Part shown: positions 2-57,036 of the stretch, in pieces
Layout of the letters: every line of letters begins with the position of its first letter
How positions within the stretch are numbered: the first letter of the stretch is position 1
Program-made: the position numbers and the translations under genes
Assembly (NCBI GenBank): GCA_964016885.1
Contig: OZ024757.1
Coordinates: forward strand, 23,684,001-23,748,000
Length of the DNA stretch: 64,000 bases
Reading direction: 5' to 3'
Origin: Eledone cirrhosa
Taxonomy: Eukaryota
Notes under the pieces: model-generated
Told to the model about the DNA's origin: nothing
Databases searched by the model: none
Seen by the model: the letters and a program-made list of their open reading frames with translations, nothing else

Positions 2-69
2 CTCCATTACCAAAGGTTTCAGGACCCCAGACAATATTAACATACGTCTGGATCGTTCATCAGACAGAG
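2..69 (-). ncRNA. Type I hammerhead ribozyme motif (Penelope-like element remnant)
   Basis: Minus strand: CTCTGT-CTGATGA-[stem II incl. CCAGAC/GTCTGG]-GAA-ACC TTT GGT-A-ATGGAG; all three helices pair; GUA site. Confidence 0.72.
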
Positions 70-269
70 AGGTTAACCTCTCTAATATTGTCTAGGGTCC
101 TGAAACCTTTGGTAATGGAGTAGCTGTATATTGTGTTGTTCACTTTCTAATATGTGTGTGTGTGTGTGTGTGTGTGTGTGTGTGTGTGTGTGTGTGTGTG
201 TGTGTGTGTGTGTGTGTCAAGATTGTTTTCCATGGTTATGTCACTATTTATAAAACAAATTTTGTATTT

Positions 270-330
270 TTTTATCTGGTGAAAGAGCACCAAGATTGCC
301 TGGGTCGCCCTTGAAATATATATAATAAAA
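270..330 (+). ncRNA. Minimal hammerhead motif with mutated core (CUGGUGA)
   Basis: TTTTAT-CTGGTGA...GAA-ATATATAT-A-ATAAAA; same layout as 13273-13338. Confidence 0.55.
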
Positions 331-1742
331 TAATTATAGTTTTATAAATATAGTGTATATAGGTAAAGACACCTTCAGTCATGAATGACCATTAGATAGT
401 TCCTCATATAACGAGTTAGAAAGTTCCCCATATAACGAGTTTAAACTATATCAATTGGGAAACTAATAGTATTTGGAGAAACATAATCGATATATATTCT
501 ATATGTATTGATTACACCTAAAATTATATATACACACACACACACACAATTAGACACGTCTCACGTAGGAGGTGAAATTTATGTTTTCCTATGTTATTTG
601 GTGTGCTTTTGAACGAATATAATATAGTCAAATCATCGGATATTATTGGGTTTTTTTTTTAAATAGCTGGTGAAAGAGGGCGACGGCGACACACAAATGA
701 GATGGATGTCATTGTAAAAAAAATGTACAACACACACACTTACAAACATAAATATGGTACATATAATAGTGATGGGGAAGCCGGTACTATTTTCTGAGAG
801 AGAGAGGGGGGGAGAGAGAGAGATGATACTGAAGCAAAAATGGATGAAAAACAACAAAATATTTTACCGAATATATTTCTTTGTGATATTTCAAAGTAAA
901 GACCTTCTTTTCAGATTTAAAAAGATTTGAAATATCACAAAGAAACATATTGGTTAAAAACATTTTTTTTTTCATTCATTTTGTCCCAATACGATCTTTT
1001 TGTACCGGCTTTCCCAACAAATGAAACAGATCTAGTTCTGTAGAAGACATTTCTATGTATAATAAAGATGTATTGAGGTACCCTTTTTTTTTTTTTAACT
1101 GGAGTTACCACCCGACACAACTCGGGAACCAACATATAATATATAATCTGGAATTTGGTGTCTGGATAGCAAGAGCTCTGCCGCCGGGCCCCGACTCTCA
1201 TATATATATATAGAGAGAGAGAGAAAGTGAGAGAGAGAGAGAGAGAGGGGGGGGGTTGCATATATCCAAGAGAATACTCTATATTGTATATATACAAAGC
1301 ACACAATATATTGTGTATTCTCTTCGATATATGGTCCTCTCTCTATATATATATACAGATATACATATATATATATATATCTTTTACTTTTGAATTATGA
1401 CTCTGGACAAAGTCTATTGAGCTTTTTTTTTTATTGAGAAGAACAAAAATCGAACATATTTGATATGTTTTGATACCTCGTGTGTGTGGAATCAACACTG
1501 ATACGAATTCAAAAGAAACTTTGAAAAGCTACCCAAACTGAAACATCGGACAAAAACGCATAAATGAGGAATTGCTGAAGAGTTCAAAACAATTCCATAC
1601 ATAAGCTGTCCGCTCTAACAGAACGACCGAACCAAACTTCAGGAATAATATATTTTATATCAAATAATTTCTTATCTGTGTGGCGTAAATTTGCATAAAA
1701 CCATTCAGAGCACCATCTTCACATCTTTATTATACTTATATA

Positions 1743-2008
1743 CAGGGCAAGCGCTGCCATATATGCAAACTAGGCAGCCACCTAGGGCACTGATTTCAGG
1801 GGGCGCATTTCTCCAAATTAACCACAATTTTGAAAAATTTATAAATAAATGTCAGTTTTATGAAGGTCGTTTTTTTTTATCCTGGTTTATTTCATGTTGA
1901 AAATTTAAAAAATATATATATTTATGAATTTTGAAATTGATATTTTTCCTTTGGGGGCGCCAGAATCTAACCTTGCCTAGGATACCAGATAGTCTGGCAC
2001 TGGCCCTG
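1743..2008. mobile_element. Non-autonomous hAT-like MITE
   Basis: TIRs CAGGGC...GCCCTG and a near-perfect 8-bp TSD (CTTATATA 1735-42, CTTGTATA 2009-16). Confidence 0.75.
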
Positions 2009-2304
2009 CTTGTATATACACAACCTTTATGAGGGCCCTCTCCAGATTTTGGTCTTTGTATTTATTACTGCTACTATATATATTGGAGTACAAACTTAGT
2101 TTAAATATCCAAGAGTTTAGAGCACTCAGTCCATAGGATGAGTTAAGTAAAATTAGTTACAACAGTGACATATAAGGTACTTAAGTTTCGTTGGGCTAAA
2201 CAACCCAACGAAACTTAAGTACCTGTATGTATCACTGTTGTGGGAGTGAGTGAGTGAATGTGCGTGGAGAGAGAATAACCAAGTTTACTTAAAAACATTA
2301 TTTT

Positions 2305-2452
2305 AATCCTACATACGTTTCAATGTATAACGGCGGGCTATACCCCGACATGTCCGTCGGTCTATACCCCGACATGCCCGTCGGTCTATACCCCGACATG
2401 CCCGTCGGTCTATACCCCGACATGCCCGTCGGTCTACATATCCTCAGGAATT
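2305..2452 (-). ncRNA. Hammerhead motif with loop II expanded by a 4x24-bp tandem repeat
   Basis: Minus strand: AATTC-CTGAGGA-T-ATGTA...TACAT-T-GAA-ACGTATGT-A-GGATT. Confidence 0.62.
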
Positions 2453-2682
2453 TACATGCTGTCATAAATTTCAACATTAATACATGCAAAAGATAACTTT
2501 ATACCATAAATGAGGCTCATACCATAACAAATAATATAATGCAAAATATAAGTACATTTAAAGTAACAGCAAAGCATAGCAAAGGCAGTGTTAAAAATAG
2601 TATAAGAAAATTTAGCAATTATAGGACATTCATGATGATTTCATACGAATGAAACAGTTCTAGTCATGTAGAAGTCATTTCT

Positions 2683-54418: not shown

Positions 54419-54503
54419 CCAAAAACTGTAAATCTCGATTTGGCTGCAAAAATCTTGATTGGTAACATGACAGTCGATAAAACCGAAAATTCTAAATTCA
54501 AAA
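54419..54503 (+). CDS. E2F7/8: E2F7/8 coding exon 6 (DBD2)
   Basis: TTTTCCAG acceptor; PKTVNLDLAAKILIGNMTVDKTENSKFK; donor GTGAGT, phase 1. Confidence 0.95.
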
Positions 54504-56081
54504 GTGAGTTAAAACATTATATAATATTTCATTTCATTTCATCTTAAGTCTGCTTTTCCTTGCTTGCAAGGGTGGGACGGGAACTGATTCTGGCTTGATT
54601 TTTACAGCTGGATGCCCTTCCTAACACCAATCTCATTTACAGTGAGTGCTGGGTGCTTTTATGCCGTGGCACGTCCATTTTACAGTGTGGGCGGGGTGCT
54701 CTTTTGCAGTGGAATGATAGGGACCCCAGTCCCTATCATCTCATTTCTACAGTTGAGTAAACTGGAACAATATGAAATAAAGTGTCTTGCTCAAGGAAAC
54801 AACACATCACCCGGTCTGAGAATTGAACTCACAAGCTTTCGATTGCAAGGCCATGTGTATATATATATATATACACTGTCAGGTGGTTTGCAATAGGAAG
54901 ACACCTGCTGTAGAAACTATGCCTCAAAAGGGTTGACAGGATCAATGGGCATAACAATCTCTCTTATGTTGGCCCTCTACATAATAAACATAGCCAGTGC
55001 ACACTGTAAGGTGGTTGGTGACAGGAAAGGTGTCCAACCATAGAAGGGTTGGGAGGACTTCCATTTGTTTAAAAATGACAACCTCCCTAGTGCTGGTGCC
55101 ACAATAAAATGCACTCAGTAGGACATAGGACGATATATAAGCGAGAATAAAGACTTCTGGCCTGTTGGGGGGGGGGGGGGGGTCAGTAGCCCCACTTCAG
55201 TGCTGAGCTGACTTGGACTGTGAAGACCCAGGGAAAAAGTCTAAAGTCTGTCTTAAGCCCTGAGGCTCATCAGGCCAGTGCTTTTTCTAGTTTCCATGGT
55301 GTTAAGCAACTGGGATCATGATTTTCCCCTGGACAGGATGCTAGTCCATCATAGGGTTAAACCCCCAACTATTATTGCTGGTACCCATTTTCACCTGAGT
55401 ATATTGGAGCAACATAAAATAAAGTATTTTGCTCAAGAACACAACACACGGCATTAAGCTTGTGAGTCCAACACCACTAAACCACACACCTCCCCTGGCA
55501 GGGATGTTCAATAATTAGGATGATGGTGATGATATATCTACTGTAGCTTGGGATTGATCCAGGCTTTGTGAGAGAATTTTCGTTTGACTAACTGAAACTG
55601 TTTTAGTATATATATATATATATTGGTGGATAGCATGGTAGAACCAGTGGAGCACCAAGCAAGATGCCCTGTGGTATTTGGTTATATCACTTTACTAAAC
55701 TGCCTGAAACCTGTCATGGTTCTGTAATACAAATCTGTTTATTTTAAAGGGTTTTACCTTCCTATATTTTGTCTTATTGTTGTAGGCTTCATTTTATTTT
55801 GTTTTGTATGTATAGTGGGTTGTGTAGGTTTTTGTAGTACATGCAGTTTGGGACAGGGCAAGAAGAGTAATTTATAGGCAGATGGGAGGAAGAAGCTAGA
55901 ATATAAAATATATAATATGGTATACATTTTGTGATTTATTATATTCTAACTTCTCCCTCTAGCTTACTCTTCTTGCTTTGCCCTGAACCACATGCACTAC
56001 AAAAAAAATCTACACAACCCACTATATATATATGTTGCTTGAGATATACCAATGCATTATATATATATATTTTGCTTTCAG

Positions 56082-56225
56082 CTAAAATTCGCCGTCTTTA
56101 CGATATTGCAAACATCTTAACGAGTTTGGGGTTAATTCGTAAAATTCATGTGACGGAGATCCGTGGCAGAAAGCCAGCATTCAAATATATTGGACCAGAG
56201 GTAGACAGTTCAACTGACATCAGTA
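56082..56225 (+). CDS. E2F7/8: E2F7/8 coding exon 7 (DBD2 recognition helix)
   Basis: (T)[47 protein letters not shown], the E2F7/8 DBD2 signature; donor GTAAGT at 56226. Confidence 0.97.
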
Positions 56226-56369
56226 GTAAGTGGCTTTATTCTTTATTCTCTCTCTCAATTTTTATTTTTCTCACGCCCTTTGTATATATGTGTGTGTGTA
56301 TGCATGTGGATCTGTTTGTATATATGTATATACTCAAGTTCTCTGTAATAATAATATATTTCCCTTCAG

Positions 56370-56441
56370 CTTGTAGCTCAGATGGCTGCCACAGACCAAG
56401 TTCCAGGCATTCCTTGCTTGACTGTGTTAAAAATCAAAAAG
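56370..56441 (+). CDS. E2F7/8: E2F7/8 coding exon 8
   Basis: TCCCTTCAG acceptor; (T)[23 protein letters not shown]; donor GTAAGT; 72 nt, phase 1-1. Confidence 0.85.
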
Positions 56442-56954
56442 GTAAGTTATTTAAGGATTTTTAAACCCTTAATGAAATAATTAATAATTCAATTTAAGCA
56501 AATCCCTTCCCCTTCCCCAAGTCCTTTATTAATTAATTGAAATAGAATGTATATCATTAGAGATATTCATCATGTGTTCTGTTGTTGACTTGGTTTTCTA
56601 CAGCTTAATGCCAACCACTCTATAGTGTCCTGGCAACTCCTTTTTCAGTGCACCAGCACTACTACTTTACAGAATGAATTGGGTGCTTTTTGTCAGGTTA
56701 CCAGCACTACTGCACTCATGAAAGAGTTATGTAGGCACCATAGACTTTATATATATATAATTTATAACTCTTTAAAGTTAACTGTCTAATACGTAAGCAT
56801 CTCAATGAAAGAACAAGATATACTAATAAATTAATTATCCACTCAGAGAAGTATTAAAATATATCAAACTTAAGCCAAAATCTCATTTTGTGGGTTGATA
56901 CAAGTCAAATTGGCTAAAAAGGTTTTTACTAAGGTCCATTTAACTTATATAATA

Positions 56955-57036
56955 CCCCAAACATGGTTTCTGAAACTCAAGATACAACATCGGGAATTCC
57001 AAGACATTAGAAGAATTTAAGTTTCTTCATCAGGGG
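56955..57036 (-). ncRNA. Hammerhead-like motif, antisense within an E2F7/8 intron
   Basis: Minus strand: CCC-CTGATGA-A-GAAACT...AGTTTC-A-GAA-ACCATGTT-T-GGG; stem III one base from palindrome ACCATGGT. Confidence 0.55.

Follow-up and report, generated by a model that had tools for sequence, protein, structure and literature searches.

The 64-kb window analysed here (the whole stretch of DNA, 64,000 nucleotides) contains real type I hammerhead motifs, as judged by sequence and predicted fold, and self-cleavage is predicted at H17. The motifs belong to many families and are probably the 3' ends of Penelope-like elements (PLEs), present as short, 5'-truncated insertions in TA microsatellites.

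All 19 sites listed by an earlier sequence-only reading of this DNA, namely 16 motifs and three decayed ones, were present at the positions given (Table 1). The core CUGANGA / GAAA / UH, in type I order, is intact in 14 of the 16 motifs; a change of A6 to G breaks it in 276+, and changes at G5 and G8 do so in 13142+. The proposal of 16 hammerheads holds fully for the ten that combine an intact core with three helices (C3 positions 63−, 2447−, 11529−, 13281+, 13605+, 21710−, 22314+, 26545+, 27296+ and 57033−). Besides the two broken cores, three motifs with an intact core have one weak helix (14400−, 21416+ and 23084+; singly at chance level, 0.44 per shuffled window), and one, 47177−, has lost most of stem I at an inversion junction. 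The rate of one motif per 4 kb proposed previously is close to the window-wide value of about one per 4–6 kb, but the distribution is uneven, with 14 of the 16 within the first 28.3 kb.

A strict descriptor required the canonical core, a stem I of 3 bp or more, a folded stem II and a stem III that is either paired or palindromic. It gave six matches in the 64-kb window, whereas 300 block-wise dinucleotide shuffles averaged 0.02, the reversed sequence gave none and each of 179 scrambled-core decoys at most one; an earlier descriptor, over-strict on stem II, gave five. With a graded descriptor, 16 matches were obtained at a score of at least 20 (0.6 per shuffle), and the shuffled control proposed by the sequence-only reading gave an excess far above chance, with ten matches at a score of at least 24 versus 0.11 per shuffle (100 shuffles). 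A score-21 match at 10694 was rejected as a junction artefact, in which a LINE 3' piece is joined to a hammerhead-like 3' half. Rfam hammerhead models fit canonical forms, not minimal ones; in the 64-kb window no Rfam match reached the gathering score, and no hammerhead was among the 150 weak matches listed of 267.

It is extremely improbable that the motifs are chance matches in repetitive, AT-rich DNA. Fifteen sequence-only matches to a related, degenerate pattern were found in metagenome and viral contigs (12 + 3), and the four weakest single sites here are expected 0.3–0.44 times per shuffled window, but stem I is absent from all 15 of those matches, and the ten matches against 0.11 expected are accompanied by intact cores across family copies. 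The exact pattern of the 11529 family had no match in metagenome contigs. Chance is thus refuted for the motif set, while 21416 taken alone may still be a chance match. A splice-acceptor-like tract lies directly 5' of that candidate.

Table 1. Hammerhead motifs, related pieces and the host gene in the window. Rows marked "added" are beyond the list of the sequence-only reading.
Position	Strand	Feature	Remarks
2..69	-	Type I hammerhead; core intact, stem I of 6 bp, stem III short and paired	Predicted fold is the minimum-energy fold
84..160	+	5'-truncated inverted partner arm of the 2–69 motif, 3' half only, ends at TG tract	
270..330	+	Type I hammerhead, broken core (A6 to G), AATAAA across cut site	
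1017..1070	+	3' fragment from the decayed hammerhead family of 2630/19190/45263	Added
2159..2241	.	Candidate head-to-head pair, hammerhead-like 3' halves (GAAA, 6-nt palindrome, UA), no 5' core	Added
2305..2452	-	Type I hammerhead, loop II swollen by 4.3 copies of a 24-bp tandem	C3 2447
2620..2689	+	Decayed hammerhead family copy, C3 changed	
10570..10768	.	Candidate head-to-head 3' halves around LINE 3' piece; 4-bp stem III, palindromic loop	Added
11320..11377	-	Lone 3' half, candidate 10570 family, ends at TA tract	Added
11412..11727	-	High-copy 11529 family, longest copy	Minimal hammerhead at 11498–11533 (GAAA-CG-UH)
13049..13253	+	11529 family copy, 5'-truncated; core broken at 13144 and 13147 (other copies: G)	
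13273..13338	+	Type I hammerhead, stem I of 8 bp, stem III palindromic; AATAAA across cut site	~110-bp insert between TA tracts
13600..13671	+	Type I hammerhead, stem I with one mismatch, palindromic stem III	
14337..14425	-	Hammerhead, stems I and II weak, 32-bp fold-back at 5' junction	C3 14400
19190..19243	+	Copy from the decayed hammerhead family, without the 5' core	
21412..21469	+	Weak candidate: core intact, stem III paired, stems I and II poor	
21626..21817	-	11529 family, third copy	Minimal hammerhead at 21679–21714
22310..22351	+	Type I hammerhead, 6-bp stem II with extra base, 4-bp stem I	
23080..23137	+	Hammerhead, 4-bp stem I, palindromic stem III, stem II decayed	
26537..26601	+	Type I hammerhead, 8-bp stem I, palindromic stem III	
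27288..27358	+	Type I hammerhead, stem I of 8 bp, stem II long, stem III palindromic; AATAAA across cut	
27826..27902	-	11529 family 3'-end piece, no ribozyme core	
37720..37797	.	Candidate head-to-head pair, 10570 family, no 5' core	Added
45197..45275	-	Copy from the decayed hammerhead family; intact core, G as cleavage base, damaged stems	
47135..47207	-	Hammerhead relic, core cut by 63-bp fold-back, stem I of 2 bp	
47290..47440	.	Decayed hammerheads, head-to-head; G8 changed	Added; C3 47352 on minus strand
47542..60146	+	Host E2F8 gene, 10 coding segments	Product 77% identical to Octopus bimaculoides; the host is an octopod
56955..57037	-	Type I hammerhead within an E2F8 intron, antisense; stem III palindrome with one mismatch	

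Among 15 family representatives, picked as hammerhead-like, a mean of 3.6 of 4 stem I positions pair within motifs versus 2.1 of 4 across families, and pair types varied. A MAFFT alignment of 12 motifs misplaced the short ones and was used neither for a covariance model nor for a pair count. Among the stem III strands are five distinct perfect 8-nt palindromes, a further one that includes G-U, and a 4-nt minimal form; stem III is palindromic or minimal in 11 of the 16 motifs and near-palindromic in two more. In PLE ribozymes a palindromic stem III represents a dimer design (PMC4209133; PMC6765202), and PLE minimal hammerheads have an extra base after A9 and the pair G10.1-C11.1 (PMC4209133). 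Motif 11529 combines a minimal stem III with both of these features, and 22314 has an extra base and a G-C pair. A paired, monomer-type stem III, which is atypical of animal PLEs, occurs in 63, 21416, 47177 and the 2630 and 10570 families. Besides 63, 15 intact-length motifs were folded, and in 14 of them the unconstrained fold is either unlike the core-open fold or more stable.

The motifs fall into about 12–14 families, so that the many families postulated from the sequence were found, though not all motifs are unrelated: 11529, 13142 and 21710 form one family (90–96% identical), and 276, 13281 and 26545 have their 3' half in common. The sites 2630, 19190 and 45250, described before as decayed, are indeed so and belong together in one family, which has a fourth copy at 1021 and whose copies are all broken. 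Families with several copies (those of 11529 and 2630) thus exist. Sequencing depth over the 11529 family was 0.8–1.15 million versus 9.3 on a single-copy flank, about 100,000-fold, and its core is intact in other copies (reads) and in two other organisms. Core letters are 95–99% intact in this family, which shows an intact master sequence only; we rejected it as evidence of selection on the copies because a young family looks alike. Six copies in the window have a broken core or cut site. Molecule ends at 13092–13095 in a RAD library coincide with an AATT site and were read as restriction cuts, not as cleavage.

The insertions have an anatomy like that of PLEs, for which inverted 5'-truncated copies and microsatellite targets have been reported (PMC8557442). 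The cut site lies at most 100 nt from a microsatellite in 13 of the 16 motifs versus 32% of the local background (P 8e-5), most motifs having a TA tract less than 100 nt away and target-site duplications being unreadable inside microsatellites, and hammerhead pieces occur in seven short-range inverted repeats (head-to-head pairs or fold-backs). The four pieces of the 11529 family have a common 3' end and differing 5' ends, and 1,810 reads continue upstream of the 13049 copy, matching the longer copy. In the 2630 family, too, copies are truncated on the 5' side and end together on the 3' side. No direct-repeat pair flanking an ORF (pseudo-LTR arrangement), which is not expected of solo fragments, was found in the window.

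A PLE reverse transcriptase or GIY-YIG ORF had been reported as missing from the window, in agreement with our search, in which RVT_1 and GIY-YIG matched none of 217 of the 359 low-repeat, stop-free frames of at least 42 aa (all 150 longest and 67 chosen near motifs). Three frames related to reverse transcriptases (6824–7663, 8672–8986 and 38700–39281) were dismissed as PLE candidates, being LINE C-termini (zf-RVT), and one upstream frame compared with 1.84 billion proteins matched only two unrelated bacterial repeat proteins. The PLE origin, which we infer with no parent element reached, is likely; in O. vulgaris, 190 PLE families make up 6.83% of the genome. The earlier interpretation as solo or non-autonomous PLE-type repeats is supported by motifs that are above chance, multi-copy, free of a PLE ORF and inserted in a PLE-like manner. 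The large, diverse population that it envisaged fits as well, but is the published norm for animal genomes (PMC4209133) and no hidden new class.

The fragments are explained by the 5' truncation that is ordinary in PLE insertions, and a dedicated non-autonomous family is unneeded. Some or most families could nonetheless be dedicated non-autonomous elements, consisting of a PLE 3' end only and borrowing the PLE enzyme, in the form of SINE-like PLE parasites or dispersed retrozyme monomers. We regard this as possible but rather unlikely. It would suit the great abundance of the 11529 family, whose longest copy here (about 315 bp) has no coding match, the single 5' end common to three arms of the candidate 10570 family, and the dispersed retrozyme monomers of Xenopus, derived from PLE terminal repeats (10.64898/2026.07.22.740005). 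However, the 5' ends vary in the 11529 family, neither a tRNA gene nor a head-to-tail array (150–400 bp units with a hammerhead) was found in the window, and back-joints of the 11529 family amount to two reads and one contig, although the 3' end of the family was left out of this count as a repeat and a longer unit would hide the joint.

Under the preferred reading of truncated PLE 3' ends, the precursor RNA of an active tandem PLE would be cut by its two ribozymes, paired via their palindromic stem III. The start of reverse transcription would lie about 40–90 nt 3' of the cut site, and synthesis would often stop or fold back within 50–300 nt, leaving a solo ribozyme copy. Such copies would mostly be inactive, because they are without a partner and decay neutrally.

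The sequence-only reading placed AATAAA directly after several motifs; in 276, 13281 and 27296 this hexamer is instead formed by the cleavage-site base and the 3' strand of stem I, so that it spans the predicted cut site in three motifs. In 8 of 15 families AATAAA lies at most 45 nt from the cut site, versus 7% of the background. These overlaps would agree with ribozymes active in host transcripts, where RNAs from different loci of one family would pair via the palindromic stem III and cut, and insertions would be purged from genes or would tune transcript ends, a scenario that we consider improbable. The E2F8 coding span holds one of the 16 motifs, in antisense (P 0.03 by length), but TA tracts are equally scarce there (8 versus 45 in the first 28.3 kb), so the gap is attributed to scarce TA targets and was rejected as evidence of purging from the gene. 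Moreover, minimal PLE hammerheads left monomers uncut in vitro and showed low dimer cleavage (PMC4209133), and the six broken family copies also argue against such activity.

Solitary, heterogeneous PLE hammerheads have already been published for animal genomes (Cervera and De la Pena 2014, PMC4209133). Those minimal or small-stem-III motifs have the same type I order, an absent or palindromic stem III, an extra base after A9 and a short stem I, and they likewise form many heterogeneous families that are mostly solitary, with some opposite-strand pairs. In contrast to that set, stem II is long or stem III paired in several motifs here, and no parent ORF is linked to the motifs. The density in the window (10–16 in 64 kb) far exceeds the counts of that study, which used another descriptor (about 2,000 + 1,300 in Schistosoma mansoni and about 9,000 in Xenopus tropicalis). 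Non-LTR retrozymes (Cervera and de la Pena 2020, PMC7229834; Li, Clavereau and Pollet 2026, 10.64898/2026.07.22.740005) are likewise non-coding, of high copy number and PLE-related, with type I hammerheads numbering 126,247 in the axolotl and about 5,000 in a mussel, whereas the copies here are 5'-truncated, not of unit length, and without tandem arrays. Naiad/Chlamys PLEs, of which remnants occur in cephalopods, also have TA-microsatellite targets, 5' truncation and inverted truncated partners (Craig et al. 2021, PMC8557442). Since Naiads are without canonical hammerheads, unlike the motifs here, these would stem from other PLE clades. Our literature search found no report of such hammerheads in cephalopods.

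The genome-wide motif number is perhaps 0.4–0.7 million. A bolder view, to which we give little credence, is that octopods carry about half a million motifs, the densest ribozyme load of any animal, so numerous that RNAs of different loci pair through the palindromic stem III and cleave in trans, with a cut inside AATAAA in several families. If true, cleavage and polyadenylation would be mutually exclusive, both for element RNA and for read-through host transcripts, and such a switch could be tested cheaply on the overlapping AATAAA; otherwise, the motifs are ordinary transposon relics. The motif could help to assign the repeats reported for O. vulgaris as 'unknown' (15%) or 'unclassified SINE' (9%). 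If the density holds genome-wide, no natural library of minimal hammerheads richer than that of octopods would be known, and its many independent families would allow tests of what the ribozyme does during the PLE cycle, a role described as a mystery in a 2020 review (PMC7761336).

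The hammerhead observation in the window was confirmed. All 19 positions of the sequence-only reading were correct. With a strict type I descriptor there were 6 matches, whereas 300 block-wise dinucleotide shuffles averaged 0.02, the reversed window had none and no scrambled core (n=179) yielded more than one. A graded descriptor, tolerating one core mismatch, bulges and a long loop II, found 10 matches at a score of at least 24, where 100 shuffles averaged 0.11, and 16 at a score of at least 20, where they averaged 0.6. Fifteen matches to a related pattern, found by sequence alone among public metagenome and viral contigs, served as a negative control, and all lacked stem I. 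An Rfam scan of the window returned no match at gathering score and no hammerhead among the best 150 of 267 weak matches. Of the 16 motifs claimed (named here by C3 core position and strand), ten combine an intact core with all three helices, and six are weak, reduced or broken. The three sites near 2630, 19190 and 45250, described as decayed, form one family with a fourth at 1021; every copy is damaged, and a type I fold could be traced by hand, its stem III paired and its stem I bulged.

Features of the window, with strand in brackets or after the position
Feature	Position	Details
Hammerheads, intact core and three helices	C3 63-, 2447-, 11529-, 13281+, 13605+, 21710-, 22314+, 26545+, 27296+, 57033-	
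Hammerheads, weak helix	C3 14400-, 21416+, 23084+	each alone at chance level
Hammerhead, reduced	C3 47177-	stem I of 2 bp
Hammerheads, broken core	C3 276+, 13142+	
Inverted repeats with hammerhead pieces	1-121, 2159-2241, 10570-10768, 14394-14425, 37720-37797, 47145-47207, 47315-47429	
Short inverted repeats without hammerhead pieces	9623-9683, 22087-22173, 55807-56030, 62380-62504, 62916-63258	
10570 repeat family	10570-10768, 11320-11377, 37720-37797, 13443-13558, 43872-43945	hammerhead-like 3' half, 4-bp stem III
Ribozyme-less 11529-family piece	27826-27902 (-)	start within 1 base of predicted cut site
Ribozyme deletion in several 11529-family copies	13141-13194	jump from stem I/core boundary (13141-13143) to 13179-13194
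Tandem repeat in loop II of 2447-	2334-2436	24 bp, 4.3 copies, expanded; stems still pairable
Splice-acceptor-like pyrimidine tract ending CAG	21400-21415 (+)	4 nt 5' of 21416 core
Splice-acceptor-like pyrimidine tract ending CAG	11706-11725 (-)	5' end of longest 11529-family copy
E2F8 gene	47542-60146	10 coding segments
Very long simple arrays	29191-31494, 32974-37074	~770 AAG units; ~180 copies of 20-bp unit adjoining 19-bp array
Head-to-tail arrays from abundant, presumably SINE-like repeats	3483-4269, 16421-17000, 44036-44296, 31880-32787	143-145-bp and 121-bp units
LINE family 3' fragments	6587-8986, 10631-10706, 38700-39322	zf-RVT C-terminus, partly within 390-bp tandem
Piece of another high-copy repeat	12878-12949	short; depth ~2,000x flank, in all four public DNA runs

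The suggestion that the stem II sequences are mostly unrelated held only in part. Motifs 11529, 13142 and 21710 form one family (mutual identity 90-96%), to which 27826-27902 belongs as a 3' piece, and 276, 13281 and 26545 are related through a common 3' half; the 16 motifs therefore still represent about 12-14 families. For read depth, four public DNA runs were placed on 12860-13380 at 80% likeness. Depth in run X1 was 9.3 on the single-copy flank versus 0.8-1.15 million on the 11529 family, a ratio of about 100,000 that is not a copy number, X1 possibly being the source of the assembly. Scaling three copies per 64 kb to 2.8 Gb, a genome size from an O. vulgaris table and not of this species, gives 131,000, which is of the same order. 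Motif 13281 had a depth of 12,800 over the 5' core bin and about 580,000 over its AT-rich 3' half, common to other families, so that this motif, too, is multi-copy by depth, as the sequence-only reading expected. Where 13142 has its two broken core letters, the canonical G was found in 98.7% and 98.7% of the other copies in X1, 94.6% and 95.4% of reads in a second run (X8), 99.5% and 98.9% in organism B and 100% in organism C. The 11529-family master is therefore intact and common to other organisms, which does not demonstrate selection on its copies. The skips that delete the ribozyme have low depth, at one or two copies each.

Among 15 family representatives, 3.6 of the first four stem I pairs are formed within a motif versus 2.1 across motifs, with U-A, A-U, C-G, G-C and G-U pairs all present; because the motifs were selected as hammerhead-like, this describes covariation and is no independent test. 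Stem III is self-complementary in most motifs and too short to close within one molecule. Five distinct perfect 8-nt palindromes occur, alongside a further one that includes G-U and a 4-nt minimal form. This is the dimer design reported for PLE ribozymes in the accessible text of two studies (PMC4209133; PMC6765202). The predicted minimum-energy fold equals the ribozyme fold in motif 63, where stem III is paired, and the predicted unconstrained fold departs from it in the others. The first of these studies also describes a D. virilis PLE in which an intron ends at helix I (PMC4209133).

The pieces of the 11529 family share one 3' end point and have four different 5' starts, and 1,810 reads extend upstream of 13049, matching the longer copy. 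In 13/16 motifs the predicted cut site (H17) has a microsatellite, almost always TA, no more than 100 nt away, versus a 32% local background (P 8e-5); counted by family the figure is 11/14 (P 5e-4). This set of 16 comprises the 16 motifs minus edge motif 63, plus 47352 (readable 3' side). Hammerhead pieces occur in seven short-range inverted repeats, either arranged head to head or forming fold-backs; three of these repeats hold just the 3' half (GAAA, stem III, UH) and are therefore candidates. The remaining detected inverted repeats (SINE, LINE, unclassified) lack such pieces, save for a doubtful case at 837-982; the five short ones tabulated may be MITE-like elements or further truncated insertions in head-to-head pairs. 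Three arms of the candidate 10570 family have their 5' start in common, and none of its pieces has the 5' core. The start of 27826-27902 is where one would expect it in a copy of the 3' cleavage product, a single case blurred by its TA target.

The window has 37% G+C, and tandem repeats mask 34% of it. The last E2F8 exon shares 77% identity with Octopus bimaculoides E2F8 and 66% with that of Argonauta hians, which makes the host an octopod. The first 28.3 kb holds 14 of the 16 motifs, and the coding span of E2F8 holds one, antisense (P 0.03 by length). This gene is also poor in TA tracts (8 versus 45 in the first 28.3 kb), so the scarcity of motifs is no evidence of ribozyme purging.

In 8/15 family representatives AATAAA occurs no more than 45 nt from the cut, versus a 7% background, an excess inflated because these elements are AT-rich; the placement is as a poly(A) signal near the element 3' end would have it. 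The predicted cut in 276, 13281 and 27296 follows the first AATAAA base and the remainder is stem I, so that the signal would be masked on folding and destroyed by cleavage. We offer this as a hypothesis; the same letters would arise from an A/U-rich stem I, and the three motifs are possibly relatives of one another. No report of this overlap was met in the literature covered, where the one review passage met concerns Clec2 genes.

In agreement with the sequence-only reading, no PLE ORF was found: Pfam RVT_1 and GIY-YIG were absent from all 217 frames scanned, out of 359 low-repeat stop-free frames of at least 42 aa, and the scanned frames scored solely for LINE zf-RVT and E2F domains. The exact 11529-family pattern had no match in metagenome contigs, and a protein search with one upstream frame matched only unrelated bacterial repeat proteins. 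With no parent found, a PLE origin therefore rests on anatomy and on context, namely the PLE content of octopus and coleoid genomes given below. Truncation at the 5' end, truncated partners in inverse orientation and insertion at microsatellites match PLE traits in the accessible text of earlier work (PMC8557442; PMC2377424). Retrozymes, in contrast, are described as tandem and expressed as circles (PMC7229834; 10.64898/2026.07.22.740005); no head-to-tail array in the window contains a motif. Fold, abundance, truncation pattern and targets were shown here, and the motifs are likely PLE tail relics. Within a tandem PLE, a pair of ribozymes from the terminal repeats would dimerise via stem III and cleave the precursor. 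Priming of reverse transcription would take place in a TA tract, with synthesis starting about 40-90 nt beyond the cut site and usually halting or folding back soon, giving a solo 3' end. Because the copies extend across the cut site, their templates would have been uncut or re-ligated there. Solo copies would be mostly dead, since minimal PLE hammerheads showed no monomer cleavage and low dimer cleavage in vitro (PMC4209133).

Scaling 10-16 motifs per 64 kb to the O. vulgaris genome size gives 0.4-0.7 million, from one uneven window and a looser descriptor than the 126,247 motifs of axolotl, which lie below it. In the literature covered, with most subscription papers outside its scope, we met no report of cephalopod hammerheads, and the available text of the O. 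vulgaris repeat paper contains neither hammerhead nor ribozyme terms; it lists 190 PLE families, which occupy 6.83% of the genome (PMC13282606). In coleoids, Penelope is one of the families reported as expanded (PMC8967140). Cervera and De la Pena described minimal hammerheads in the thousands per genome, which were heterogeneous, mostly solitary and in some cases paired on opposite strands, and took them for probable truncated PLEs (PMC4209133). The kind of element is already known, and the motifs of the window are new members of it.
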